A DNA stretch of 64,000 bases from an uncultured Hellea sp. Lineage in GTDB: Bacteria > Pseudomonadota > Alphaproteobacteria > Caulobacterales > Maricaulaceae. The stretch spans positions 4,900 to 68,899 of the forward strand of contig CAJQGR010000008.1 of assembly GCA_905477785.1 (NCBI GenBank). The letters are read 5' to 3'. The notes beneath the pieces were generated by a model. That model did no database searches and was not told where the DNA came from. It was given only the letters and a program-made list of their open reading frames with translations. Positions within the stretch are counted from its first letter, which is position 1. Each line of letters starts with the position of its first letter. The translations under genes and the position numbers were made by a program. Below are positions 9,836-49,088 of the stretch, one piece after another.

Positions 9836-11347
9836 ATGCTTCCTGATTCAAACATTAAAAACATAGTTATTGTGGGCGGAGGTACTGCAGGGTGGATGAC
9901 AGCTGCGGCTATATCGCGCCTGCTTAACCACCCAGAGATTAAAATAAATTTGATCGAGTCAGATACCATTGGCACAGTTGGAGTTGGCGAAGCAACAATA
10001 CCGCATTTAAGATTCTTTAATCAATTACTTGGTTTGCATGAAGATGACTTTGTGAAGAAAACTAATGCTACTTTTAAATTGGGTATTGAATTCGTCAACT
10101 GGGATAAAATTGGAAAAAGTTATATTCACCCCTTTGGGCCATATGGGGTGCCAATGGGAGGCTTGCGGTTTCACCATTACTGGCTGAGACAAAAACAGAT
10201 GGGAAGCCAAATTCCAATTGATGATTATAATTTACAAATAATGGCAGCTAAAGCAGGTAAATTTCATAGACCACAGAATATAAAAAAATCGCCACTCAGC
10301 ACTATAGATTATGCCTTTCATTTTGACGCTACACTATATGCAAAATACATGCGAGAATTCTCAGAAAAAAATGGAGTTAATCGCATAGAGGGTAAAATTG
10401 TCAAATGTCATCAAAATTCTAAAAACGGTTTTATTGAAAACGTACAACTCGAAAATGGCCAAATAATACAGGGAGATTTATTTTTTGACTGCTCCGGCTT
10501 TAGAGGATTGTTAATTGAGCAAACATTAGAGACTGGATATAGTGACTGGTCTAATTATTTACCCTGCAACAGTGCAGTAGCTCAAGCAAGTGAAAAAGCT
10601 GAAGATCCAATACCATACACAAAAGCCACAGCTAAAGAGGCTGGTTGGCAATGGCGTATTCCTTTACAATCGCGAACAGGTAATGGACATGTCTATTGTA
10701 ACGATTATATTTCTGATGAGGAGGCCTTGAAAAGCTTACATAAAGGCATGGATAGTAATCCAATTGGCATTCATAAACAGTTACGGTTTAAAACTGGAAT
10801 CAGAAAAAAAACTTGGAATAAAAATGTTATTTCATTAGGATTAGCAGCCGGTTTCTTAGAGCCTTTAGAGTCTACTTCAATCCATCTTATTCAAACTGCA
10901 ATAGCTCGTTTAATGACAAATTTTCCCGATAAACACTTCAATGAAGCAGATATAAATTATTATAATCAAAGGACTCTACTAGAATATGAACAAGTCAGAG
11001 ATTTTTTAATACTACATTATAAAGCAACCGAACGAGACGATACTCCATTTTGGAATTATTGTAGAAATATGCAAATACCAAATACTCTAAAAGAGAGAAT
11101 GAATATTTACATGGAAAACGCGAGACTTTATCGTCATGATAACGAATTGTTTGGCGACGCTAGCTGGTTTGCAGTTATGCATGGACAAAATATGCATCCA
11201 CAAAGGTTTCATCCAAATGCTAATATAATGCCTGATGCTGAATTAGATAAACGTATGTCTGAAATCCATAAAACCTGGGCGGCTTGCTTGGATACATTGC
11301 CAACTCATCAAGAATACATTGATCAGCACTGTAAATCAAATATCTGA
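9836..11347 (+). CDS. Flavin-dependent (tryptophan-halogenase-like) protein 1
   Basis: VGGGTAGW, VGVGEAT, ATFKLGIEFVNW (PrnA K79-equivalent Lys), GWQWRIP (WxWxIP), GFLEPLESTS. Confidence 0.93.
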   Translation: MLPDSNIKNIVIVGGGTAGWMTAAAISRLLNHPEIKINLIESDTIGTVGVGEATIPHLRFFNQLLGLHEDDFVKKTNATFKLGIEFVNWDKIGKSYIHPFGPYGVPMGGLRFHHYWLRQKQMGSQIPIDDYNLQIMAAKAGKFHRPQNIKKSPLSTIDYAFHFDATLYAKYMREFSEKNGVNRIEGKIVKCHQNSKNGFIENVQLENGQIIQGDLFFDCSGFRGLLIEQTLETGYSDWSNYLPCNSAVAQASEKAEDPIPYTKATAKEAGWQWRIPLQSRTGNGHVYCNDYISDEEALKSLHKGMDSNPIGIHKQLRFKTGIRKKTWNKNVISLGLAAGFLEPLESTSIHLIQTAIARLMTNFPDKHFNEADINYYNQRTLLEYEQVRDFLILHYKATERDDTPFWNYCRNMQIPNTLKERMNIYMENARLYRHDNELFGDASWFAVMHGQNMHPQRFHPNANIMPDAELDKRMSEIHKTWAACLDTLPTHQEYIDQHCKSNI

Positions 11348-11501: not shown

Positions 11502-14500
11502 TTAGAACTGATACCTTAGACCAACTCTAATACGTCTATCTCCAACAAAACTAGTTCTCCCGAAGCGTTGACCATCAGCAGAAATTTGCTGCGATGCCTT
11601 AGCCTTTGTATCTAGAATATTGGCGACCTGGACACGGAACTGCAAGTTATCATTAAAGTCATACTTTGCAGATGCATCAAGATAACCTCTTTCCTCCTGG
11701 ATAATAGGAGCGCCTGTTACATAATCACGATACGAGCTCAAATACTCTGACCTCCAGTTATATGCTAGTCTAAATTCAAACTGCTCATCTTGATATATAC
11801 CAATCAAGTTAGCAGAGTGATCAGATAGGCCTAAGAAATCCTGCACACCAAAACGATATATTCTTTCGAATGAGTCAGGAATACCATCGTTATTTGCATC
11901 TGCAATCGCGGCTGGTGGGTTAGTCTTAGCCTCAATATAAGTATAGTTAGCTTGCAATCCTAAGTTTGAAAATAAACCAGGCAGATCATCAAAGAACTGA
12001 GTATAGGCAACTTCAAATCCTTGAATTTCAGCTTCATCTTGGTTTAGATCACCATTAAATACAACAGGAACTTCTACACCATCCAGTGTTTCGGTACCAA
12101 TAGTTTGCGAAGCATAGACTATATTGTTTTTGATATTTTTCTTGAAAAGTGAAAGTGTAAATGAGTTGTCATCACCAAAGTAATGCTCATATGACACATC
12201 AAAATTCCATGATGTAATCGCTTCAAGATCCGGGTTACCACCATAAATACTGATTTGCTGAGGTGTTATGGCTTGTATAATGCCGGGAACTACAGAGTCG
12301 TCCACATCATAACCGAGGTTAGCAACTGCAACCTGGTCAGCTCTTAACTGAGCAACATTTGGACGCGTAATACCCTTACTCACACCGAAACGAATTAAGG
12401 CTTCATCATTAAGGTTCCATTTAGCATTAAAAGACGGAAGCCAGTAATCGGTTGTATTAAACTCACCGTCAAACTGCGTATCCGCTTGGTCAAAATAAGC
12501 AACAGTTCCAGGAGCAAAAATTGCTTCATTGGCACCTGTTATATTTATATAATCAACCCCGCCTGTTCCTTTAACATCAGTAGATGTGTAACGAATACCT
12601 ACGTTACCATCAATTGACATACCATTATTAAACTCATTGCCAAAATCTAATTTTGCGTAGAAATCTTGAGTTTTCTCTTGAATTGATCCAATTAGGCCTC
12701 GGTTATCATAATCAACAACTCCATTAACACGCAGAGGCTGCCAATCACCTATTTGTGGATTACCAGCTGCATTTACTCCAGTACCAAGCAATGCTTCGCC
12801 TTGAAGCGATGAAACCCAAGCATCATAGTTTTGCAACAGAGCTCTATCTACAAATAGTACGGATGTATTGTTACCTACAACTGTGTCGCCGCGGAAGAAA
12901 TCAGTAAAATCTACTTCTTCGTATCCACCTTGAGTCAAGTCGGCCATTGGCATATATCCACCAGCCCAAGGAGCGGCAACAGATGCCCAGTTCAAACCCG
13001 CTGAGCGGTTTGTCTGGTCACGCTCAGCAATTCGCGCGCCAAATTCGATTGAGTCAAACCAACCGTCGCCGTCAAATTCATACTCAACATCGGCTTTAAC
13101 CGCGTACATGTCACCTTCATTATCATTAAACTCATCTGCTGAGAAAAGAAGGTAAGCATTTCTTGGGTCGTTGAGAGCGTCTGTTGCTGATGCCTGACCT
13201 CCTGTTCTTGTCAAATACGGGTTACTCGCAGCGCCTATAAGCTCAACTTGCGGGTTATCCAAATCTGGGTTTATTGTGAAGTCTGAGAAGAAACGTGTAC
13301 CGCCCCAGAGACGTTCTTTTGTAAATTCAGCAGTAGTCTTGTGTGCATCAATATTGATAAACAAACGCTCAGATGGCTGCCATTTAATATTTAGTGACAT
13401 ATCATCTGTTACTGAACGATCTTTTTGGTGTATTGCAAGGTTTGTGAAATTGGCACCGTTGGAACCAGTCCAATCACGTAGGTTGTTTGAAATTACACCC
13501 GTTTCATAAAGTCCGGTAATGGAATATGTATTTTCACAAACAAAGTTTGGATCATTAGCGCCATTACATGATGGAATATCTGCAGAAAAAGGGGTAGTTG
13601 TAAACCCAGGTGCTATGTTAGTTAGGTTGCCTGGAGGGTTACCTGGGAAAAAGCTTTCACCATCTGGAAAGAATTCTAATGTTCTCTCGTCCTGGTCTAC
13701 ACTGTTTTCGATACGCGCAAATTTAGCTGTAGCTTTAAAAGTGCCATCATTATTTTGCCACTGGCCAGCTACGTAGTAACTGTCTCGGCCTCTATCAACT
13801 TCGTTTGTACGAAGCTGAAAACCACCCGGAACACCTATTAGTTCACTTGAACCTGCAGCTACAGGAATCGGAAGAAGTTGACCCACTTGGAAACCATGTA
13901 AGTCTGACTGTAATTCTGATGATGAGAATGATGCGAGTAAACCGAACTCTCCATTTGTACTATCCCAGCGGTTACTGGCGATTACGCTGTAATCTGGGCT
14001 CCACTCGTTGCGAAGGTCAGTATAAGTGCCATCTATTGATGCAGACATAAAAGATCCTGTCTTATCAAATGGCTCAAGTGAACGAAGATTAATGGTACCA
14101 CCAATACCACCTTGGATAAGGTCAGCTGAAGCGTTTTTGTAAACATCAACAGCGCCTATTAATTCTGGAGGAACAGTACCAAAATCTAAAGAACGACCGC
14201 CATTAGCAGAAAAAGCATCTCTACCATTAAATTCAGAACGTACTAAAGTAAGACCCCGAATAAGGTTGCCTCCGCCTTCAGGTGAAGGGAAGTCACCTTG
14301 GCTTCCTCCTAAACCAAAACGCTGAACAACAACACCAGGAACTCGGGCTAATGCCTCAGCAACTGATAGATCAGGTAGTGCACCAACGTCCGAAGCCGTA
14401 ATAGAGTCAACAGCTGTATCAGCATTTCTCTTGAGGTCTCTTGCAGTCTTGATAGCTTGACGAATACCCGTCGCAACTACTTCACCTTCTTCCTCTACAT

Positions 14501-14642
14501 ATGTTTCCTCTGCTGTAGCTGAAGATGTATCTTCCTGCGCATACACGGGTGACATTAAACCAAAGCTTGCAACTAATGCTGTTGTTCCCAACAACGCTAG
14601 CTTATTTAGACGCTCTACTGACGCATTAATATTAGAATTCAC
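11502..14642 (-). CDS. TonB-dependent receptor (Caulobacter/Xanthomonas carbohydrate-uptake type)
   Basis: Signal peptide, EVVATG TonB box, plug motifs DSITASDVGALPDLSVAEALARVPGV and IDVYK/GGIGGTINL, C-terminal Phe (LRYQF). GTG start with AAGGGAG RBS. Confidence 0.95.
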   Translation of the reverse strand: MNSNINASVERLNKLALLGTTALVASFGLMSPVYAQEDTSSATAEETYVEEEGEVVATGIRQAIKTARDLKRNADTAVDSITASDVGALPDLSVAEALARVPGVVVQRFGLGGSQGDFPSPEGGGNLIRGLTLVRSEFNGRDAFSANGGRSLDFGTVPPELIGAVDVYKNASADLIQGGIGGTINLRSLEPFDKTGSFMSASIDGTYTDLRNEWSPDYSVIASNRWDSTNGEFGLLASFSSSELQSDLHGFQVGQLLPIPVAAGSSELIGVPGGFQLRTNEVDRGRDSYYVAGQWQNNDGTFKATAKFARIENSVDQDERTLEFFPDGESFFPGNPPGNLTNIAPGFTTTPFSADIPSCNGANDPNFVCENTYSITGLYETGVISNNLRDWTGSNGANFTNLAIHQKDRSVTDDMSLNIKWQPSERLFINIDAHKTTAEFTKERLWGGTRFFSDFTINPDLDNPQVELIGAASNPYLTRTGGQASATDALNDPRNAYLLFSADEFNDNEGDMYAVKADVEYEFDGDGWFDSIEFGARIAERDQTNRSAGLNWASVAAPWAGGYMPMADLTQGGYEEVDFTDFFRGDTVVGNNTSVLFVDRALLQNYDAWVSSLQGEALLGTGVNAAGNPQIGDWQPLRVNGVVDYDNRGLIGSIQEKTQDFYAKLDFGNEFNNGMSIDGNVGIRYTSTDVKGTGGVDYINITGANEAIFAPGTVAYFDQADTQFDGEFNTTDYWLPSFNAKWNLNDEALIRFGVSKGITRPNVAQLRADQVAVANLGYDVDDSVVPGIIQAITPQQISIYGGNPDLEAITSWNFDVSYEHYFGDDNSFTLSLFKKNIKNNIVYASQTIGTETLDGVEVPVVFNGDLNQDEAEIQGFEVAYTQFFDDLPGLFSNLGLQANYTYIEAKTNPPAAIADANNDGIPDSFERIYRFGVQDFLGLSDHSANLIGIYQDEQFEFRLAYNWRSEYLSSYRDYVTGAPIIQEERGYLDASAKYDFNDNLQFRVQVANILDTKAKASQQISADGQRFGRTSFVGDRRIRVGLRYQF

Positions 14643-14735
14643 TATTTTCTCTCCCTTATTGCCAAAAAGGCATACTTCTTTGTGAAGTAATAATTGCAGT
14701 TAATTTATATAACTTTATTAATACTTAAGCGTAAT

Positions 14736-14751
14736 TTGACAGCGCTGTCAA
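14736..14751. promoter_or_regulatory. LacI-type operator, copy 1 (TTGACAGCGCTGTCAA)
   Basis: Perfect 16-bp palindrome with an AnCGnT centre, in the divergent receptor/halogenase intergenic region. The same core recurs at 19446-19461. Confidence 0.8.
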
Positions 14752-14940
14752 TTACCTTTCATTAAATATTAGTTGCTATAAGATGACAGATTTATGGAAA
14801 TCATTTTTAATAAGTATTGATATCAATGCGCGCATTTGGCACGTTGTAAATCTAAACTAAAAGATAACCTATGAATTCAATTTTGATTGTAAATACATAA
14901 CGCAACAGCCCAACAACATCCAGTACAAGGAGCAAATGTT

Positions 14941-16443
14941 TTGAAAATTGAGAAAATTTGTATCGTGGGCGGCGGCACAGCGGGGTGGATGTCAGCAGCT
15001 GGTTTATCTAATAAATTCAGTGATTTAGGGATATCTATAGAACTCGTAGAGTCAGATAAAATTGGTACAGTAGGCGTCGGAGAGGCCACCCTTCCACATA
15101 TAAGGTACTTTAATAATTCTTTGGGAATAAATGAAAAGGATTTTATGCTGGCTACCCGAGCTACATTTAAACTGGGAATAGAATTTTGCGATTGGGGCAA
15201 AATTGGAGACCAATATGTGCATCCCTTTGGTGACTACGGAATACCTATTGATAACATTGAATATCATCATTTTTGGTTAAGACTGTTGCAGAAAGGGCAC
15301 AAGTCTAGACTTTGCGATCACTCTTTTCCAGTCTTAGCAGCCGAATCTGGGAAATTCCAACACCCGCAAGGTGATAACAATGAAATTGGCTCTAACTTTG
15401 GGTATGCATATCAATTTGATTCGGGCCTTTATGCTAAATTTTTGAGGAAATATTCTGAGGCTAGGAATGTCATAAGAACAGAAGGCCGAGTTACAGAAGT
15501 TCTCCAAAACCATGAGAACGGAAACATCACCTCGATACTATTGGAAGACGGGTCTACGATTGAAGCAGATATTTTTATAGATTGTTCAGGTTTCAGAGGC
15601 CTACTTATAGAGCAAACACTAAAGACAGGTTATGAGGACTGGAGTAACTGGCTCCCTTGTAACAAAGCCGTTGCCGTTCAATGTGAACAAGAAGGGCCTA
15701 GCCTTCCCTACACCAGGGCAACAGCTAGAACAGCAGGATGGCAATGGCGTATACCGCTTCAGCATAGAACAGGTAATGGATATGTATACTGGGATAAATA
15801 CATTTCAGATGATGAGGCAACACATCAGCTACTGAGCACATTAGAAGGAAGGGCAATAACAGAGCCAAAACAGCTTTTCTTTAAAACAGGGAAAAGAAAA
15901 AAATTATGGCAAAAAAATGTAATAGCGATTGGTTTGTCAGGGGGGTTCATGGAACCCTTAGAATCCACTTCAATTCACCTTATTCAAGAGGGTATAACCT
16001 CACTAATAGAGCTCTTTCCTGATAAATCTTTTCCTGAAAGCGATATAGAAGAGTACAATCGCCGTATGAATTTAAACTTTGATAGAGTTCGTGATTTCTT
16101 GCTTCTGCACTATGTAGCAACGCAGCGAGATGATAGTGATATGTGGAACTATTTTCGCAATATGACCTTACCATCAAGCCTAAAAGATAAAATCACAGCG
16201 TGGAACAATAGAGGATATTTAACTAAATACGAACACGGCGTATTCCACCCACCCAGCTGGTTGGCAGTGATGGCGGGTCAAAATTTAATGCCAAAATCTT
16301 ATGATATTAGGGCAAATCGTATCGATTATAATATCATTAAATCAAAATTAGACTCCATAAGAAATGACAATAGAATAGCTGTTAAAAATACACCGGAGCA
16401 TGCTTCATATTTACAAGAATATGGCGCTAGCATAGTTAAATAA
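14941..16443 (+). CDS. Flavin-dependent (tryptophan-halogenase-like) protein 2
   Basis: VGGGTAGW, ATFKLGIEFCDW, GWQWRIP, GFMEPLESTS. TTG start with AGGAG 8 nt upstream. Confidence 0.93.
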   Translation: MKIEKICIVGGGTAGWMSAAGLSNKFSDLGISIELVESDKIGTVGVGEATLPHIRYFNNSLGINEKDFMLATRATFKLGIEFCDWGKIGDQYVHPFGDYGIPIDNIEYHHFWLRLLQKGHKSRLCDHSFPVLAAESGKFQHPQGDNNEIGSNFGYAYQFDSGLYAKFLRKYSEARNVIRTEGRVTEVLQNHENGNITSILLEDGSTIEADIFIDCSGFRGLLIEQTLKTGYEDWSNWLPCNKAVAVQCEQEGPSLPYTRATARTAGWQWRIPLQHRTGNGYVYWDKYISDDEATHQLLSTLEGRAITEPKQLFFKTGKRKKLWQKNVIAIGLSGGFMEPLESTSIHLIQEGITSLIELFPDKSFPESDIEEYNRRMNLNFDRVRDFLLLHYVATQRDDSDMWNYFRNMTLPSSLKDKITAWNNRGYLTKYEHGVFHPPSWLAVMAGQNLMPKSYDIRANRIDYNIIKSKLDSIRNDNRIAVKNTPEHASYLQEYGASIVK

Positions 16444-16445
16444 TA

Positions 16446-17936
16446 ATGAATAATTCTAACATAAAAAATATTATCATATGTGGAAATGGATTAGCTGGTG
16501 TAATAACTACAGCAGCACTGGCCAAGGCACTGCCAAAGGAAACCAAATTAACGTTAATAGATACCCTCTGCACTCACGAAAAAGATATATTTTACGGAAA
16601 TGTAACATCAACATCAACTTACGCATTTTTACTAAGTTTGGGCATAACTGAAATTGAACTATTAACCCAAAGCAACACGTCTTTTTCATTAGGAACACAT
16701 TATTTAGACTGGGGCGAGGAAAAAAATTCATGGTATCAATGCCATCATCAACCTCTACCCCTGATACAAGGAGTAATGTTTCACCACTATTTAAATCGAA
16801 TCACCGCCAAATTCCCAGAGCAATCAGCTATAGGTCCCTATATTATGTCTGTGTGTGCAGCTAATAAAGGGGTTTTTGCCCACCCATCAAAAGACCCTAA
16901 AAATCCCTTAAAAAATATAGAATATGGTTATCATTTTCATCCTGCTGAATTACGAAAAATAATAGGTAGAAAATTAGATAACTGGGATATAAATATAGAA
17001 AAAGGAAGCATAAAATCCATCGAAAAATCTAATGGAGAAATTAAATCTTTAACATTATCCAATGGCGCTAATATATCAGGTGATTTTTTTATTGATTGCA
17101 CTCAGGGTAATTTAGGAATTTATGATAAGCGTATTAATTTTGGACATAATCGTACACTCAAAGCGGTAGAGAATATTTCACCTCATAACGAGATAATCGG
17201 CTCTTGTAGAAAAGTTCATGGCAATATTGAAAAATGGAAATCACAAACATTTTTACAAGATAAACTTCAAATACTTAATATAAGTGAGATATCCAACAAA
17301 AAAGATAATGATACTGAATCACGAACTCATCACTCAACCGGTGTTACCATTACCACTGGTTTTTCTGAAAATCCCTGGATAAATAATTGTCTTAGATTAG
17401 GACATAGTGCAGCTGTATTATCACCATTAACACCAGCACCCATTATGCTTTTACAAAATGATGTTAAGAGGATGTTGGAGCTAATTCCAATTTCGCACGA
17501 TATGAAAATTGAAGCTAAAGAATATAACCGCCGTTTCACAGAGGATTATATTCACGCATCTACATTCGAGAGTGCATTTCAACCCGCCCAGACCATTATA
17601 AAAAAAGAAAGCTATGAAAACAAAATTGAAGAACTAATTTATGATAAACTTAAAAATAAAATAATGCAATTTAAGAGTAGAGGCATTGTTCTGCAATATG
17701 ACCTTGAACCATTCAACAATGAGGACTGGATCCAGATACATTTGGGTATGAAACGCATACCAAAAAGGTATGACGCATTAGCAGATAGGCTCGATGAAAC
17801 TCAGCTCATAGAAACACTAAAAAACATCAAAAAAAATAATTTTATAATATCAGAAAAAATACCCCCACTTAACAAATACATCACAGGATTGATAAAATAT
17901 CTCAGGAAGCAGAATGACAAAGTCCAATCAAAATAA
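16446..17936 (+). CDS. Degenerate tryptophan-halogenase-like protein 3 (predicted catalytically inactive)
   Basis: Full length and collinear with its neighbours (ICGNGLAG, YGYHF, GDFFIDCT). FKLGI is FSLGT, WQWRIP is WKSQTF and FLEPLES is VLSPLTP. Confidence 0.8.
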   Translation: MNNSNIKNIIICGNGLAGVITTAALAKALPKETKLTLIDTLCTHEKDIFYGNVTSTSTYAFLLSLGITEIELLTQSNTSFSLGTHYLDWGEEKNSWYQCHHQPLPLIQGVMFHHYLNRITAKFPEQSAIGPYIMSVCAANKGVFAHPSKDPKNPLKNIEYGYHFHPAELRKIIGRKLDNWDINIEKGSIKSIEKSNGEIKSLTLSNGANISGDFFIDCTQGNLGIYDKRINFGHNRTLKAVENISPHNEIIGSCRKVHGNIEKWKSQTFLQDKLQILNISEISNKKDNDTESRTHHSTGVTITTGFSENPWINNCLRLGHSAAVLSPLTPAPIMLLQNDVKRMLELIPISHDMKIEAKEYNRRFTEDYIHASTFESAFQPAQTIIKKESYENKIEELIYDKLKNKIMQFKSRGIVLQYDLEPFNNEDWIQIHLGMKRIPKRYDALADRLDETQLIETLKNIKKNNFIISEKIPPLNKYITGLIKYLRKQNDKVQSK

Positions 17937-19431
17937 TATAAAAAATATAGTTATTGTAGGCGGAGGCTCAGCGGGCTGGATGACAGCTGCCGCTTTATCA
18001 AGCATGTTAAGCCCTAATAATGTAAATATTACACTGATTGAGTCAGAACAGATTGGCACTGTGGGAGTTGGAGAGGCAACAATTCCGGATATGTTAAATT
18101 TCAATGCTATGCTGGGGATTGATGAAGCTGAGTTTTTAAAAGCAACAGATGGAACATTTAAACTGGGAATAGAATTTAACAACTGGGGTCGCAAAGGCGA
18201 CTCATATTTTCATCCCTTCGGTAATATTGGCGTAGATATGCAAGGGATTGACTTCCATCAATTTTGGCTTCGCTCTAAAGAGGGAGGCAGTACTGCAAAG
18301 TTGCAAGATTATAGTATCTGCGCAGTCGCAAGTGTCGAAAATAAATTTTCTATGCCAGATCAAAACCCAAGATCTTTATTATCTCATTTACGTTATGCAT
18401 ATCATATTGATGCAACCAAATATGCGAAATACTTACGTAATTATGCTGAATTAAGACACGTTAATCGTTTGGAAGGTAAAGTCACTCAAGTAAACCTAGA
18501 CCAAGAAACTGGAAATATAGCCAATCTTCAAATGGAAAGTAAACAAATTATAGAAGGTGATTTCTATTTTGATTGCACTGGGTTTAGGGCTTTACTGTCT
18601 GATGGAGCACTTAAGGTGCCATTTACAGATTGGAGCCACTGGTTACCTTGCGATAGCGCTCAAACTGTAGCAAGCAAACAAAAAGGAGAACTTTTACCCT
18701 ATACGAAAGCCACAGCTAAAACAGCTGGGTGGCAATGGAGAATACCCACCCAACGTAGAACAGGTAACGGGCATATTTATTCAAGTAAATTCATGAGAGA
18801 CACCGATGCAACTGAAGTATTATTAGATGGGATCGACAGTGAACTTATTGGAAACCCACGTAAAATAAGCTTTAAAACTGGTTGTCGTAAAAATTTATGG
18901 AATAAAAACTGTATTTCCATTGGTTTATCAGCAGGCTTTTTAGAGCCATTGGAGTCAACTTCGTTATATCTCATTCAAGTGGGTATTAGTAAATTTATAT
19001 CTCTATTTCCGACAACTGAAGTTTCAGAGGTGGTGAGAAGCGAATATAACAAACAGATGTTAAAAGAATTTCATCAAGTTCGTGATTTTATTATATTGCA
19101 TTATAAAGCAACAGAACGGGATGATAGTGAATTTTGGAATTATTGCAGAAATATGAGTGTTCCGGACAGCTTAAGTGCCAAAGTAGAACTTTTTAGAGAA
19201 GCAGGTAGAGTATTTAGATATGATGATGAATTATTCTCGAAGCCTAGCTGGATCGCAGTTTGCTTAGGGCAGAATATAATACCAAAGAACATTGACCCCA
19301 TAATTTCCTCATTACCGTTTAATCAAGTGCAGCATAGTCTCGACTCCATGCAAAATGCCATGAAAGTTAGTGTAGATAAAATGAAAACTCATGAAGAATT
19401 TATCAAGCATTACAATGCCAGCTCTATATAG
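17914..19431 (+). CDS. Flavin-dependent (tryptophan-halogenase-like) protein 4
   Basis: VGGGSAGW, GTFKLGIEFNNW, GWQWRIP, GFLEPLESTS; overlaps the previous gene by 23 nt. Confidence 0.93.
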   Translation: MTKSNQNNIKNIVIVGGGSAGWMTAAALSSMLSPNNVNITLIESEQIGTVGVGEATIPDMLNFNAMLGIDEAEFLKATDGTFKLGIEFNNWGRKGDSYFHPFGNIGVDMQGIDFHQFWLRSKEGGSTAKLQDYSICAVASVENKFSMPDQNPRSLLSHLRYAYHIDATKYAKYLRNYAELRHVNRLEGKVTQVNLDQETGNIANLQMESKQIIEGDFYFDCTGFRALLSDGALKVPFTDWSHWLPCDSAQTVASKQKGELLPYTKATAKTAGWQWRIPTQRRTGNGHIYSSKFMRDTDATEVLLDGIDSELIGNPRKISFKTGCRKNLWNKNCISIGLSAGFLEPLESTSLYLIQVGISKFISLFPTTEVSEVVRSEYNKQMLKEFHQVRDFIILHYKATERDDSEFWNYCRNMSVPDSLSAKVELFREAGRVFRYDDELFSKPSWIAVCLGQNIIPKNIDPIISSLPFNQVQHSLDSMQNAMKVSVDKMKTHEEFIKHYNASSI

Positions 19432-19442
19432 CTTATTTTAGA

Positions 19443-19464
19443 TATTTGACAGCGCTGTCAAATA
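19443..19464. promoter_or_regulatory. LacI-type operator, copy 2 (TATTTGACAGCGCTGTCAAATA)
   Basis: Perfect 22-bp palindrome about 60 nt upstream of the ATG at 19523. It contains TTGACA (19446-19451), with TATAAT at 19467-19472. Confidence 0.8.
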
Positions 19465-19522
19465 CTTATAATTACAACAACATATAGTTTTTGTTGCTTT
19501 GATTACGGATAGGATTTTAAAT

Positions 19523-20203
19523 ATGAGTAAACTTCGTTTAATTCTAATATTATCTCTGACTAGTTTTTTACCCGCCCAAAGTGAAGACATAGGCTCTATC
19601 GAAGAAATAATAACAACAGGAACTATTCAAACTGACCCAGCAATGTCGGCTTGGCGTGCTGGGGATTTTGCCACTGCTGAAATTGAATTTAAACAAAATG
19701 CTTTTTGTGCATTAAGGGTTGAACGTAACTTCATTTCAGGGCTTGAGGGAGCCAGAGACAGTACAATACGCTCTGATGTTGGAACAGATATTGATCTTCC
19801 CGCCCAACCATCAGGCGGCTTAGGAGGTGCAGTTGTAGCACCAACGACACAACCTGTAATACCTAAGGTTCAGCTCAATTCATCGGATTTTAGAAATAAA
19901 GATAATGAAGGAACACGTACATGCGAAGATAGGGGTTTCCAAATTTACATGATGGGTATGTCACAACTAAAGCTTGGAAAGCGTGATGAAGCCAAAGCAA
20001 CACTTTTAAGATCAACAGGGTTAAGAAAAAACTTATATGATGCGCATTTCAGGTTGAGTTTAATGGAATACCAAGACAACAACCTCAAAAAAGCGAATGA
20101 ACACTATAAAAAATTAAAAAAACTGGGGTCAAAATGTAAAAAATGTGTGGCAAAAAAAGAGATTGTGGCACAAATTAAATACCTTGAAAACCTTCTCGGA
20201 TAG
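19523..20203 (+). CDS. Secreted hypothetical protein with C-terminal TPR-like helices
   Basis: Signal-peptide-like N-terminus (MSKLRLILILSLTSFLPAQS), EEIITTG motif, helical repeats (YMMGMSQLKLGKRDEAKATL, DAHFRLSLMEY), CKKC near the C-terminus. AGGA RBS before ATG 19523. Confidence 0.65.
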   Translation: MSKLRLILILSLTSFLPAQSEDIGSIEEIITTGTIQTDPAMSAWRAGDFATAEIEFKQNAFCALRVERNFISGLEGARDSTIRSDVGTDIDLPAQPSGGLGGAVVAPTTQPVIPKVQLNSSDFRNKDNEGTRTCEDRGFQIYMMGMSQLKLGKRDEAKATLLRSTGLRKNLYDAHFRLSLMEYQDNNLKKANEHYKKLKKLGSKCKKCVAKKEIVAQIKYLENLLG

Positions 20204-20237
20204 AACCTAAAAAAATTTAAACACATAAAGGAATAAT

Positions 20238-20834
20238 ATGTTAAACCGAATATTTATAACGATATTTTCTTTTGCTCTTTTAATATTTGGAGCAAACATA
20301 ACTTCTTCTGCCGATGAAATGAATAGCTCAAGTGATCAGAGAGCATTTCCGTTTTTAGTCAGTAGTCTAAATTTTGACTGGGTAACCTACGGGCCAGACA
20401 AAAGAGAAAAAATAGTGGAATCAGAAGGTGCTCCAAGCGGAATGGCCTACAGGGTTACTGTAAGAAAGAAAAAACCTAACTCTTGGGACATAGCAACACG
20501 TAATGATATGGTAAAAGATATCAAAAAAAATGATATCATAGTTGTTTCTTTCTGGGCCAGAGCAGCCAAACCTCAAAAAGGGAAGGAAAAAGGCGATATT
20601 TTAGTCGCATTACAAAGAAATATAGAACCTTATGACTCTGTCATTGAAGAACGTATTGCGCTCGATAAAGAATGGAAACTCTATTACCTCACAGGAAAAG
20701 CTAACCGTGACTATGCAGCTGAAAGAACTGAGTGGAACTATAACCTAGCTTTTGCCAGACAAACTGTTGAGCTTGCGGAGTTTTACGTTACAAATATAGG
20801 CCCTGATGGGGACCCAGAACAATACATGCCATAA
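20238..20834 (+). CDS. Secreted stand-alone carbohydrate-binding module (CBM4/9/22-like beta-sandwich)
   Basis: Signal peptide, then PNSWDI, VSFWARA, EPY, LDKEWKLY pattern typical of CBM_4_9-like domains. No catalytic domain. Confidence 0.65.
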   Translation: MLNRIFITIFSFALLIFGANITSSADEMNSSSDQRAFPFLVSSLNFDWVTYGPDKREKIVESEGAPSGMAYRVTVRKKKPNSWDIATRNDMVKDIKKNDIIVVSFWARAAKPQKGKEKGDILVALQRNIEPYDSVIEERIALDKEWKLYYLTGKANRDYAAERTEWNYNLAFARQTVELAEFYVTNIGPDGDPEQYMP

Positions 20835-20874: not shown

Positions 20875-21513
20875 ATGACACTTATATTCTATGATTACAG
20901 TAAGGCGCCTAGCCCTAGGCGGGCTAGAATTTTTTTAGCTGAAAAAAACGTACCACATAAAACTGTTGAAATTAATCTCATGGCAAATGAGCAAATGGGA
21001 GATGCATTCCGTAAAATTAATCCTGATTGCACTGTTCCTGCATTACAGCTTGAAGATGGAAAAATCTTAACTGATAACGCCTCTATCGCAGCTTATCTCG
21101 AGGAAATTTATCCAGAGCCCCCCCTGTTAGGCACTACACCCTATGAAAAAGCTGTTATAGCATCCTGGCAATCGAAGATAGATCATGAGTTTGGTATGGC
21201 AGTTGCTAGTGCTTTGCGAAATGCTAACCCTGCAATGAAAGATAGATCGCTGCCAGGAAAACATAATTACAAGCAAATACCAGAACTATCCATAAGAGGA
21301 CTTAAGCAGATAGACAACTTTTTAAATTTTCTAGAAACACACCTCCAAGAGAAAGAATTTATTTCGACAGGAAAATTCACAATAGCAGATATCTCTGCAG
21401 CATGCGCCTTAGATTTTGCGAGGGTTGTTAAAAAGAAAGCCAACGAAAATATGCACCCTAATATAATACGGTGGCGGTCAGGTCTTTCCCAAAGAAAGAG
21501 CTTTAACATTTAA
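20875..21513 (+). CDS. Glutathione S-transferase family protein
   Basis: APSPRRARIFLAEK, INPDCTVPALQLEDG, FTIADI motifs. Confidence 0.92.
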   Translation: MTLIFYDYSKAPSPRRARIFLAEKNVPHKTVEINLMANEQMGDAFRKINPDCTVPALQLEDGKILTDNASIAAYLEEIYPEPPLLGTTPYEKAVIASWQSKIDHEFGMAVASALRNANPAMKDRSLPGKHNYKQIPELSIRGLKQIDNFLNFLETHLQEKEFISTGKFTIADISAACALDFARVVKKKANENMHPNIIRWRSGLSQRKSFNI

Positions 21514-45397: not shown

Positions 45398-45694
45398 CTA
45401 ATCCTCTCCCAATGCCACTCGAACTTGCCTTATAACTCGGTCTAACTCTTGGGTGGTCTCGTCAGCCAATATGCCAAACTCTTTTTCACGAGCTAAGAAA
45501 TCTTTCTCTTTCGCATAACTTGCATCAAGCTTAGCAGCAAGTGCTGCCCTGTCTGCACTCATGGCATCTGATTCTTTTTTTAAAGCTTCCAAACGACTCA
45601 CTTTATCTAATAGAGAGTCGATAGAACCCCCTAATTTACCAATTGCTGACTTTAATCTGTCAGATGCTTCTTTTATGTCAGCGCTGTCATTCAT
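45398..45694 (-). CDS. DUF4164-like coiled-coil protein
   Basis: Short coiled coil (DRAALAAKLDA) upstream of zapA, as in other alphaproteobacteria. Confidence 0.7.
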   Translation of the reverse strand: MNDSADIKEASDRLKSAIGKLGGSIDSLLDKVSRLEALKKESDAMSADRAALAAKLDASYAKEKDFLAREKEFGILADETTQELDRVIRQVRVALGED

Positions 45695-45842: not shown

Positions 45843-46856
45843 ATGACTATCCGTATTGGTATTAATGGCTTTGGACGAATTGGTAGACTAGTTGCAAGAG
45901 CCATAGAAGAATACGATATCAATGATATCAAACTGGTAGCGATAAATTCGCCTGGAGACGTATCCACATCGGCACACCTACTTCGTTATGACTCAGTACA
46001 CGGCCGCTTCAAAACTGAAGTGTCTGAAGGTAGTAATTTTATAGATTATGGTCGAGGAAAAATACGAATGACTCATGAACGTGACCCTTCAAAAATTTCA
46101 TGGGGCGACTTGGATGTTGATGTAGTGATGGAATGCACAGGGGTATTTCGATCTAAAAAAGATGTTAAGTCACATTTTGATGCAGGGGCAAAAAAAGTAC
46201 TTATTTCTGCTCCTGGTAAAGAAGTGGATAAAACTATTGTTTATGGTGTTAACCACAATGACCTCACTGAAAAAGATAAAGTTGTGTCTTGTGCTTCCTG
46301 TACAACTAATTGCCTTGCACCAATTGCAAAAGTAATAATAGACAGTATTGGAATTAAGCGCGGGTTTATGACTACAGTTCATAGCTACACCCAGGATCAA
46401 CGCATTTTAGACAATTCCCATAAAGATTTATATAGGGCACGTGCTGCAGGCCTAAATATGATTCCTACTAGCACGGGAGCAGCAAAAGCGGTTGGTTTAG
46501 TAATTCCAGAACTTGTGGGTAAACTTTCGGGTTCGGCAGTTCGAGTACCAACAGCTAATGTATCCATGGTTGACCTAGCCTTTCAACCTGTAATGAAAAC
46601 AAGTGCTGACGAATTGAACGCAATAATGAAAAATGCAGCTGAAACAACTATGAAAGGGGTCATTTGCTATACAAAAAATGCTCTTGTTAGTTCAGACCTC
46701 AATCATGACCCCAACAGTGCTACTTTTGCTGCTCCATTAACTAAAGTTTTGGATGGGCACCTAGTAAAAATCGTTGCATGGTATGATAATGAATGGGGCT
46801 TCGCTAATAGAATGATAGATGTCTCTCGCGTAATGTGCAGCCAAAAGAAAATATAA
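45843..46856 (+). CDS. gap: Type I glyceraldehyde-3-phosphate dehydrogenase
   Basis: INGFGRIGR, ASCTTNCLAP, HSYT, IPTSTGAAKA, WYDNEWGF. Confidence 0.98.
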   Translation: MTIRIGINGFGRIGRLVARAIEEYDINDIKLVAINSPGDVSTSAHLLRYDSVHGRFKTEVSEGSNFIDYGRGKIRMTHERDPSKISWGDLDVDVVMECTGVFRSKKDVKSHFDAGAKKVLISAPGKEVDKTIVYGVNHNDLTEKDKVVSCASCTTNCLAPIAKVIIDSIGIKRGFMTTVHSYTQDQRILDNSHKDLYRARAAGLNMIPTSTGAAKAVGLVIPELVGKLSGSAVRVPTANVSMVDLAFQPVMKTSADELNAIMKNAAETTMKGVICYTKNALVSSDLNHDPNSATFAAPLTKVLDGHLVKIVAWYDNEWGFANRMIDVSRVMCSQKKI

Positions 46857-46861
46857 TTCAA

Positions 46862-48049
46862 ATGAATTTTAATCGATTAAAAGATGTTCATCTTAATGGG
46901 AAAACAGCAATTGTACGTGTAGATTTTAATCTACCTAAAGACGATAATGGCTCAATATCAGATGATACAAGACTAAGAGCAGCACTTCCAACAATTAATT
47001 TTTTAACAACAGCTAATGCAAAAGTGATTTTAATTTCACACCTTGGTAGGCCCAATGGTAAATGCGATCCAAGACTATCTTTAAGTTTTGTTATTCCCGC
47101 TTTATCCAAAGCCTTAGGTACTAAAGTGTCCTTTAATGATAATTTAGAATTTAAAAATGTTGATAAAATTAGACCAGGTGAAATTATGCTTCTCGAAAAT
47201 ATAAGATTTCATAAAGGAGAAACAAGCGGTAATATAAAATTAGCCAGAAAAATAGCTCAATTAGGGGATGTTTTTATTCAAGATGCATTTTCAACGGCAC
47301 ATCGTAAGCACTCATCATCATCAGTTGTAGGAGATCTCTTACCATCTTATCCAGGGTTAGCTATGGAAAGAGAAATCGAGCACATAAGCCATGCTCTTAA
47401 TACACCAAGGTCACCTGTAATGGGTGTTGTTGGTGGCGCAAAAGTATCCACAAAAATAGAGCTTCTTGGGAATCTTGTAAAAAAATTGGATATACTAGCT
47501 ATAGGAGGCGGTATGGCGAATACATTTCTGAGTGCCTTAGGAAATGAGGTCGGATCTTCATTATATGAGCCTAGTTTTGAAAAGACCGCGTTAGGAATTT
47601 TAAAAAAGGCCGATCAAGAACATTGTAAAATTATATTACCTTCGGATGTAATAGTTGCAAAGCAATTTCAAGCCAATGCTAATTTTCGCCAGTGCAAGCC
47701 GAATGAAGTATTGAGTGATGAAATGATACTTGATTGTGGAGAAAGCTCTATCAATGATATAAAGGCTGCTCTTGATGAGGCAAAAACAGTGATATGGAAT
47801 GGGCCATTAGGGGCTTTTGAAATTGATCCATTTGATAAAGCAACTTCTGAAACAGCAACATACGCTGCAAAATTAACAAAAGAAGGTAAAATTGTTTCTG
47901 TTGCAGGCGGCGGTGATACAGTGGCAGCTTTAAAAAATGCATCAGCAGCTGATGACTTTACATTTATTAGTACAGCTGGAGGTGCATTTCTGGAATGGCT
48001 AGAAGGAAAAGCTCTTCCAGGTATCGAGATTTTAAAAAAGGTATCTTAA
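46862..48049 (+). CDS. pgk: Phosphoglycerate kinase
   Basis: RVDFNLP, SHLGRP, LENIRF, DAFSTAHR, GGAKVSTK, WNGPLG, STAGGAFLEWLEG. Start moved to ATG 46862. Confidence 0.98.
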   Translation: MNFNRLKDVHLNGKTAIVRVDFNLPKDDNGSISDDTRLRAALPTINFLTTANAKVILISHLGRPNGKCDPRLSLSFVIPALSKALGTKVSFNDNLEFKNVDKIRPGEIMLLENIRFHKGETSGNIKLARKIAQLGDVFIQDAFSTAHRKHSSSSVVGDLLPSYPGLAMEREIEHISHALNTPRSPVMGVVGGAKVSTKIELLGNLVKKLDILAIGGGMANTFLSALGNEVGSSLYEPSFEKTALGILKKADQEHCKIILPSDVIVAKQFQANANFRQCKPNEVLSDEMILDCGESSINDIKAALDEAKTVIWNGPLGAFEIDPFDKATSETATYAAKLTKEGKIVSVAGGGDTVAALKNASAADDFTFISTAGGAFLEWLEGKALPGIEILKKVS

Positions 48050-48050
48050 T

Positions 48051-49088
48051 ATGAATATTCAAGAGCTAAATAGGATAGCATTAAAAATGGTCGAACCAGG
48101 AACAGGTATTCTTGCAGCGGACGAATCCACAGCAACCATTGGTAAAAGGTTTGAGAGCATTAATACTGAAAGTACCTATGAAAAAAGGCGCGATTGGCGA
48201 GAAATGTTATTTAGAACTCACGAGGCGATGAGCAATCATATATCAGGTGTTATATTGTATGATGAAACTATCCGCCAAAAAACTGCGGATGGAACATCTT
48301 TAGTTGAGTTAATAAAATCTACTAATACTCTACCAGGTATAAAGGTAGACACAGGAACAACACCACTAGCTGGTAGGCCACAAGAATCCATAACTCAAGG
48401 ACTTGATGGTCTTCGCGAACGTTTAACTGAATATTATAAGTTAGGTGCACGTTTTGCAAAATGGAGAGCTGTAATTGAGATTTCTCACCCAGATCAATAC
48501 GTAGGTACGACACCAACTATAGGCGGAATTAAAGCTAACACACATGCGCTTGGTCGTTATGCAGCCTTATGCCAAGAAGCTGGAATAGTTCCAATAGTTG
48601 AACCAGAAGTGCTCATGGGGGGTTATCATAATATTGAGCGCTGTCATGAAGTTACAGAGACCACATTAAATTCTCTTTTTACTGAACTATATGAACAAGG
48701 TGTCAAGTTAGAAGGTATAATATTGAAGCCGAATATGGTTGTTGCAGGAAAAAAGTGTGCTGAACAACCTAGTAGAGTAGAGATAGCGGAGCGCACCATT
48801 AAAGTCTTAAAAGATACAGTACCTGCTGCTGTTCCTGGAATCGCTTTTTTATCAGGTGGACAAAAGAATGAAGAGGCTACAAGAAATCTTGATATGATGA
48901 ATAAAATAGGTAGTTTCCCGTGGAGGCTTACATACTCATATGGGCGTGCTTTGCAGCAGTCAGCTTTATTTACATGGAAGGGTAAGAAAAGTAATTATAA
49001 AAAAGCTCAAGAAGCTTTTTATCACAGAGCTAAAATGAATAGCTTAGCTAGTATTGGAAAATGGAGTCAGGATTTAGATAAATTTTAA
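48051..49088 (+). CDS. Class I fructose-bisphosphate aldolase
   Basis: GILAADES, GIKVDTG, FAKWR, VPIVEPEV, LKPNMV (Schiff-base Lys), FLSGGQ, SYGRALQ. Confidence 0.96.
   Translation: MNIQELNRIALKMVEPGTGILAADESTATIGKRFESINTESTYEKRRDWREMLFRTHEAMSNHISGVILYDETIRQKTADGTSLVELIKSTNTLPGIKVDTGTTPLAGRPQESITQGLDGLRERLTEYYKLGARFAKWRAVIEISHPDQYVGTTPTIGGIKANTHALGRYAALCQEAGIVPIVEPEVLMGGYHNIERCHEVTETTLNSLFTELYEQGVKLEGIILKPNMVVAGKKCAEQPSRVEIAERTIKVLKDTVPAAVPGIAFLSGGQKNEEATRNLDMMNKIGSFPWRLTYSYGRALQQSALFTWKGKKSNYKKAQEAFYHRAKMNSLASIGKWSQDLDKF

Follow-up and report, generated by a model that had tools for sequence, protein, structure and literature searches.

Which regulator reads a palindrome that stands twice beside genes for a TonB-dependent receptor, halogenase-like flavoenzymes and secreted carbohydrate-binding proteins, and does it bring these genes under the control of sugars? 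The question was raised by a stretch of 64,000 nucleotides from an uncultured Hellea sp. (contig CAJQGR010000008.1; the whole stretch is called the window here, and positions in it are counted from its first letter). The initial annotation, made from the letters alone, had read the palindrome as the operator of a single LacI-type repressor encoded outside the window and had assigned the receptor, the halogenase-like genes and the secreted proteins to a sugar regulon. According to our comparisons, the palindrome very probably serves as operator for a GluR-type LacI factor, which is encoded on contig C69 of the same genome and whose regulon would cover beta-1,3-glucan (laminarin) uptake and glucose catabolism. 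The evidence observed directly consisted of the sites, their genome-wide distribution, a regulator gene flanked by the same sites, conservation among relatives and covariation between regulator and operator.

Within the window, copy 1 of the operator is a perfect 16-bp palindrome, TTGACAGCGCTGTCAA, at 14736-14751 (core 14737-14750), located in the control region between the receptor gene (11502-14642, minus strand) and the diverging halogenase-like gene hal1 (14941-16443, plus strand), and it carries TTGACA on both strands. Copy 2, which lies between hal3 and the genes for a TPR-like and a CBM protein, extends to a perfect 22-bp palindrome, TATTTGACAGCGCTGTCAAATA, at 19443-19464 (core 19447-19460). 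It contains an exact TTGACAGCGCTGTCAA at 19446-19461, and the operator is thus present twice in identical form, as had been reported. The TATAAT that had been described 15 nt beyond the TTGACA of copy 2 was likewise found, with the two hexamers at 19467-19472 and 19446-19451, respectively. The form TGACAG-CG-CTGTCA, with its central CG, is of the LacI type and its length falls within the 14-20 bp class of such palindromes. In addition, we found a third copy, missed by the initial annotation, at 45675-45690 (aTGTCAGCGCTGTCAt, one mismatch, core TGTCAGCGCTGTCA), 153 nt upstream of the gap1-pgk-fba operon (45843-49088, plus strand; class I aldolase), which is its predicted target. At up to three mismatches, TTGACAGCGCTGTCAA matched the window three times against 0.18 matches expected, and none of 100 shuffles reached three.

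A scan of the whole genome (1.83 Mb, 37% G+C, assembled in 92 contigs and 97% complete) for the 14-bp core, TGACAGCGCTGTCA, had been proposed as the way to find the regulon. It returned seven perfect and two one-mismatch copies, and a reversed control pattern gave none at up to one mismatch. All nine sites adjoin carbohydrate genes on their 5' side, and seven are intergenic, though only about 9% of the genome is non-coding (crude calls of open reading frames cover 91% of it). Among look-alikes with three mismatches, 2 of 41 were intergenic and 39 lay inside open reading frames, versus 7 of 9 for the sites themselves; this sharp break separates a functional set from the background. Sites with two or three mismatches were rejected as members of the regulon, the two-mismatch sites all lying in open reading frames except for the operator of a second LacI paralogue described below.

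Six of the sites lie outside the window. One perfect site (C69:26462) lies upstream of zwf-pgl-edd-glk and just downstream of the stop codon of a LacI gene, and another (C69:27607) lies 114 nt upstream of the start of that LacI gene, between it and a divergent second glucokinase gene. Further sites precede an operon of an SSF Na+/solute symporter gene and a GH3 gene, a GH16 gene and, at a distance of 19 nt, a second gap gene, gap2 (site at C10:78782-78795, locus L005). The remaining site is 167 nt upstream of ppdK (site at C63:11217-11230, locus L007), inside the 3' end of glyS. The GH16 protein carries a lipoprotein signal and has laminarinases as its nearest solved structures, and the GH3 protein (GH3 plus Exop_C) matched best an exo-1,3/1,4-beta-glucanase (3usz, 3.5e-230). 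A divergent FAD amine-oxidase-like gene shares the gap2 operator, as it also does in the relative G017, and in Hellea balneolensis a homologue of that gene lies about 1.5 kb from the gap2 site. The scan thus outlined a small sugar regulon together with a LacI gene outside the window that has sites on both sides, which supports the regulon inference of the initial annotation.

Only two genes with a LacI helix-turn-helix domain (PF00356) were found in the genome, on contigs C69 and C57, both of them outside the window. The first (C69:26473-27492) adjoins zwf-pgl-edd-glk, is flanked by the two perfect core copies given above and encodes a protein of 339 aa with full LacI architecture, 75% identical to its counterpart in H. 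balneolensis DSM 19091, with CcpA (1rzr) and PurR (1bdh) as the nearest solved structures. This flanked gene agrees with the prediction of one repressor encoded outside the window. The second paralogue (C57:1600-2592, 330 aa) is preceded by an operator of its own, TGACAACGTTGTCA, and followed by an MFS sugar transporter gene, all within C57:1558-4095 (locus L008). The bases on either side of the central CG are the only two in which this operator differs from the GluR-type site. A nearby gene of 1077 aa, considered as a second receptor, was rejected, being an autotransporter protease. Regulators and operators covary: the recognition helix VS(M/I)KTVSRV pairs with the GCGC-centred site, and VSFKTVSRV pairs with ACGT-centred sites. 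The best Caulobacter matches to the C69 protein are LacI genes adjacent to the Entner-Doudoroff operon, which lie between edd-glk and a GH3 gene and encode proteins 50-51% identical to it; at four of these loci (L023, L025, L028 and L031), TGACAGCGCTGTC(C/T) adjoins the LacI gene. A maximum-likelihood tree supports a clade of Hellea-family regulators adjacent to the Entner-Doudoroff operon (91/92), a Caulobacter clade (99/98) and a separate clade of the second paralogue (100/97). LacI homologues with about 46% identity and a perfect TGACAGCGCTGTCA in their flanks were also observed in Gammaproteobacteria (L042, L069, L076, L059 and L067, from Gilvimarinus, Maricurvus and other Cellvibrionales); in Gilvimarinus (n=3), about 80-120 bp separate the site from the gene downstream of it. 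The operator specificity therefore extends beyond Alphaproteobacteria.

The core motif was frequent across the genus and in a sister genus, and the order's other families had it rarely. In H. balneolensis (G011) and in G017, a member of another genus, sites were found at the orthologous promoters of zwf, gluR, glk2, GH3, GH16, gap2, gap1-pgk-fba and receptor/halogenase, and G006 is also among the relatives with conserved sites. The variant core of copy 3 occupies the same position in H. balneolensis and G017. The ppdK site is conserved in G017, where it was also observed to lie inside the 3' end of glyS (L109:3140). The LacI gene adjacent to the Entner-Doudoroff operon, with its flanking sites, was kept in Hellea, Litorimonas and Robiginitomaculum, and also in Algimonas-like genomes. 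The site is found upstream of receptor orthologues whose proteins are 62-66% identical, and its distance of about 95 nt to the start codon is kept in three of the four aligned orthologues from relatives. In an alignment of five receptor upstream regions (mean column identity 50%), TTGACAGCGCTGTCAAAT was the main conserved island, the sole other conserved features being the ribosome-binding site and a small GCC-N5-6-GGC hairpin. This hairpin (14661-14671, minus strand) lies just upstream of the receptor ribosome-binding site, AGGGAGAGA, and is conserved in all five genomes aligned.

What is known of the LacI family leads us to infer binding, the direction of control and the kind of effector; with promoter positions that are likewise putative, the regulon may work as follows. 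A dimer of the C69 protein would occupy the nine TGACAGCGCTGTCA sites and keep about eleven transcription units repressed. Its release would come from a sugar signal, which is probably glucose itself, an intermediate derived from it, or a beta-glucoside. The units for uptake and hydrolysis would be the receptor gene, the secreted TPR/CBM genes, the lipoprotein GH16 laminarinase and the operon of the Na+/solute symporter and the GH3 exo-1,3/1,4-beta-glucanase, and a further unit would probably be the hal1-hal2-hal3 operon. The predicted catabolic units comprise the two glucokinases, the Entner-Doudoroff operon, gap2, gap1-pgk-fba and ppdK, and the regulator gene itself would be among its own targets.

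The receptor belongs to the TonB-Xanth-Caul subfamily, having the Pfam Plug and barrel domains and scoring 550 bits on TIGR01782 (cut-off 310) and about 30 bits on FepA-type models. Downstream of copy 2, the secreted TPR-like protein (19523-20203, plus strand, ATG at 19523) and the secreted CBM_4_9 carbohydrate-binding protein (20238-20834, plus strand) both have signal peptides, and a glutathione S-transferase-like gene (20875-21513, plus strand) is possibly the last gene of the putative TPR/CBM operon. On the other side of copy 1, hal1 encodes a flavin-dependent halogenase-like protein of the BrvH/Xcc4156 type (motifs GGGTAGW, FKLGI and GWQWRIP), with BrvH (6frl, E 3.4e-142) as its best PDB match, followed by Xcc4156 (6y1w, 2.5e-130). 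It is followed by hal2 (16446-17936, plus strand) and hal3 (17914-19431, plus strand), so that three genes of the Trp_halogenase family stand in tandem, and a fourth halogenase-like gene, hal0 (9836-11347, plus strand), is convergent with the receptor gene; its orthologue in G017 is the last gene of the halogenase operon. The GxGxxG, FKLGI (with the catalytic Lys), WxWxIP and EPLESTS motifs are all kept in hal0, hal1 and hal3. The paralogue hal2 is degenerate, having lost the catalytic Lys (to Ser, FSLG), the GVGEAT and WxWxIP motifs and the Glu of EPLESTS. It is nevertheless kept between intact paralogues both here and in relatives (34-41% identity). At copy 3, the first codons of a DUF4164 gene (ZauP-like, upstream of zapA; 45398-45694, minus strand) overlap the operator, and the DUF4164-zapA operon may therefore also be affected.

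The initial annotation had further proposed that the repressor acts by occluding the -35 element. The half-site TGACA makes up five-sixths of TTGACA, and 50% of the half-sites have T as the base before it, with A in a further 35-44%. Occlusion of RNA polymerase would be likely at the TPR, symporter, zwf and receptor promoters, since a half-site supplies the TTGACA -35-like hexamer there. The geometry is TTGACA-15-TATAAT, with a short spacer, at the TPR gene and TTGACA-17-AATTAT at the symporter gene, and at zwf and the receptor gene a 19-nt spacer and a weak -10 hexamer follow the TTGACA. All five genomes keep the TTGACA that faces the receptor gene, which supports an overlap of operator and -35 element at this promoter. 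At gap2 the operator overlaps a -10-like TATAAT, and at GH16, gluR, gap1 and ppdK the site overlaps no evident promoter-like element. The occlusion idea is therefore supported only in part, as a likely mechanism for the four promoters with a TTGACA half-site, and is not general, because T precedes TGACA in only about 50% of the half-sites and gap2 differs. A scan of 14400-19600 with Rfam at E up to 1 matched no RNA family, so the long leaders in this region are without a known riboswitch.

Several observations weigh against the assignment to a GluR-type regulon or against parts of it. In the tree, the Hellea-family and Caulobacter clades fall into a polytomy with other lineages, and the case for GluR orthology is therefore built on synteny and on the operator that both have in common. 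The assembly, with 92 contigs and 97% completeness, may also lack a further LacI gene. A consensus promoter scan with 16-18 nt spacing gave nothing at either copy 1 or copy 2, and promoter-like sites in the region were fewer than in shuffles. In the halogenase direction, the best promoter-like candidate, ATGACA-17-TTTAAT, starts 47 nt downstream of the operator start, and hal0 has no operator of its own at up to one mismatch. Finally, two larger relatives, G003 and G016, with four LacI genes each, differ at the receptor promoter. In G003 (C11; L116/L101), where a local LacI of the second-paralogue clade stands beside a cluster of GH3, CBM, TPR, halogenase and receptor genes, the promoter carries operators of the ACGT/ACCT type at two sites 21 bp apart. 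In G016 (C21; L117/L102), no operator was found just upstream of the receptor gene; a long-branched LacI, which the tree does not assign to the second-paralogue clade, is found at a distance of about 8 kb. GluR control of the receptor is therefore lineage-specific, in what looks like a switch of regulator between paralogues within one genus. The G003 cluster, which includes a GH3 gene, provides an independent tie of the receptor/halogenase cluster to a beta-glucosidase.

The second operator was also subject to turnover. Relatives carry AGACAGCGCTGTCA between the TPR and CBM genes (L098:15285, L099:9065, L100:6986 and L101:2473), whereas here (window 19432-20237) the site precedes the TPR gene and the 34-bp TPR-CBM spacer is without an operator.

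The sign of regulation is the point on which a different explanation survives best. The regulator could have a dual role, repressing the uptake and glycolytic genes and activating, or differently regulating, ppdK and gap1, and we consider this a serious minority possibility. The sites of these two genes lie far upstream, at 167 and 153 nt, where no promoter-like element overlaps them; ppdK is gluconeogenic; and for the analogous PckR of Rhizobiales, dual action has been predicted (PMC4052901). Against this, long 5' leaders could put the ppdK and gap1 sites at their promoters.

Less likely, in our judgement, is that copy 1 controls the receptor only and that the hal operon, with a promoter of its own, stands outside the sugar regulon. 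The conserved TTGACA toward the receptor would fit this, and so would the spacing of about 95 nt between site and start codon that four of the five genomes show, as would the siteless hal0, the downstream position of the hal promoter-like element and the lack of a common promoter in the halogenase direction among the relatives. Because the best element lies 47 nt downstream, repression of hal1-3 from copy 1 would not be simple occlusion, and the operator for the halogenase operon may lie upstream of its promoter rather than inside it. On the other hand, among the relatives compared, the halogenase-like genes were always divergent from or beside this receptor gene, with the operator region common to both. 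In G017, moreover, cTGACA-17-TACAAT overlaps the operator in the halogenase direction, and G003 has its two operators at the shared region.

The wider occurrence of halogenase-like genes bears on the same point. From 81 genomes of the order we took the best halogenase-like loci, 30 in number, and scanned each gene with about 1.5 kb on each side. In all, 16 LacI-type palindromes (TG....CG....CA, at most one asymmetry) were found, against 1.9 in shuffles, which argues against a hal operon outside sugar control and suggests that sugar-type regulation of halogenase-like clusters may be general across the order. Palindromes of several specificities, for example TGATAGCGCTATCA, TGTTAGCGATAACA and TGGTAACGTTCCCA, were observed beside such genes in other genera (L122, L123, L128 and L129), and some genomes of the order have up to 10 halogenase-like genes. 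Taken together, copies 1 and 2 are likely to control the receptor gene and the TPR/CBM genes, respectively, and copy 1 probably controls hal1-3 as well, though less directly. The initial annotation had taken the shared operator as its best direct evidence that the halogenase-like genes belong to a sugar regulon; the genome scan supports membership of the receptor and the secreted proteins, and the halogenase-like genes are less directly supported than the receptor.

That the second paralogue on C57, or both paralogues, bind the sites is improbable. The two operators, TGACAGCGCTGTCA and TGACAACGTTGTCA, are close enough to invite the idea, and H. balneolensis has a perfect site of the GCGC type (L103:14294) in the interval that separates its second LacI gene from the accompanying MFS gene. 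The GCGC-type site, however, flanks the LacI gene next to zwf from Hellea to Robiginitomaculum, near-identical sites flank the Caulobacter GluR genes, and the second-paralogue clade consistently goes with ACGT-type sites and a different recognition-helix residue. Last, the palindrome does contain TTGACA and the intergenic DNA is AT-rich, but a dispersed repeat (REP- or MITE-like), or a promoter-like element that arose by chance and lacks a regulator of its own, can be dismissed almost entirely, since there are only nine copies, all by carbohydrate genes rather than at unrelated positions, with none for the reversed control, with flanks alike only in A/T richness, and with copies kept at orthologous positions while the surrounding DNA diverges.

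If the GluR-type reading holds, an anonymous palindrome becomes the key to a regulon that can be mapped and put to the test in a streamlined marine alphaproteobacterium. One LacI-type switch appears to couple the capture of laminarin at the outer membrane, its hydrolysis and the import of glucose with the Entner-Doudoroff pathway and lower glycolysis. The comparisons also point to remodelling of the regulon: small genomes with two LacI genes have put beta-glucan genes under GluR-type sites, and G003 keeps a local paralogue with a slightly different operator. The main value is the physiological context, that of a sugar regulon, which this offers for 'tryptophan halogenases' of the BrvH/Xcc4156 type, and it suggests growth on laminarin or glucose as the inducing condition. 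Rather tentatively, BrvH-type halogenase-like flavoenzymes might be accessory parts of TonB-dependent glycan uptake, co-induced with laminarin-degrading enzymes by a glucose- or beta-glucoside-responsive LacI factor, and not enzymes of secondary metabolism or siderophore synthesis; their substrate would then accompany or derive from the imported algal glycan. The different LacI-type operators beside halogenase-like genes across the order would then suggest such a glycan-uptake role as a general rule.

The halogenase-like genes have been seen in a similar setting before. A neighbourhood of a TonB receptor, one to three tryptophan halogenases, SapC and a JmjC dioxygenase was described by Iyer et al. 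(2010, PMC2938197), who predicted the synthesis and uptake of a halogenated siderophore-like compound; this was the sole published genomic-context prediction that we found for such halogenases. As in that neighbourhood, a receptor gene stands here beside several halogenase-like genes with the Rossmann motif and the catalytic lysine. Unlike it, the present locus gave no SapC or JmjC domain in Pfam scans, and where the earlier work predicted a siderophore, a sugar-regulon operator and a receptor of a carbohydrate-type subfamily are found here. Bromination of indole by BrvH and Xcc4156 in vitro is weak, and tryptophan is not accepted by BrvH, for which no native substrate is known; the parts of the two reports consulted describe no regulatory context (PMC5945002, PMC7754283). 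In the full-text literature, we found nothing pertinent that links halogenases and TonB-dependent receptors to laminarin, polysaccharide utilization, glycoside hydrolase or LacI regulons.

The operator itself shares with CcpA/cre and other LacI operators an N-terminal helix-turn-helix protein, a 14-16 bp palindrome and a central CG. It differs from that of CcpA in its half-site, and the corepressor logic of the HPr type is not implied here. As a sugar-uptake system, the regulon resembles the CUT loci of Xanthomonas and Caulobacter, where TonB-dependent receptors are under LacI-type repressors, as in the sux locus. Both put a TonB-Xanth-Caul receptor, glycoside hydrolases and an inner-membrane sugar transporter under a common repressor of the LacI family, in the present case by prediction. 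CUT loci form one cluster, whereas the genes here are scattered over at least five loci and the predicted regulator also controls central glycolysis.

The closest counterpart is GluR (CC2053) of Caulobacter, a LacI-family regulator predicted in silico to be autoregulated, with glucose as the proposed effector (Ravcheev et al. 2014, PMC4052901; RegPrecise). Its predicted targets are zwf-pgl-edd-glk, pykA, gnl-gfo, ppdK and sucABCD; its Caulobacter paralogues BglR1-3 were assigned to beta-glucosides; and no GluR orthologues were found outside Caulobacteraceae (PMC4052901). The Caulobacter operator, TGACAGCGCTGTCy, is essentially the same as the one here, and in both cases the LacI gene adjoins zwf-pgl-edd-glk with an operator between, a GH3 gene also adjoining in Caulobacter. 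Both predicted regulons include zwf-pgl-edd-glk, ppdK and autoregulation. None of the nine sites in our genome adjoins pykA, gnl-gfo or sucABCD, genes that were not separately located. Unlike the Caulobacter regulon, that of the Hellea sp. would take in the receptor, GH16, GH3, the symporter, the CBM protein, both gap genes with pgk-fba and the halogenase-like cluster. The predicted regulator is thereby extended beyond Caulobacteraceae, and the regulon is of a known kind (GluR/BglR-type LacI), not categorically new, although earlier descriptions of it did not include this lineage.

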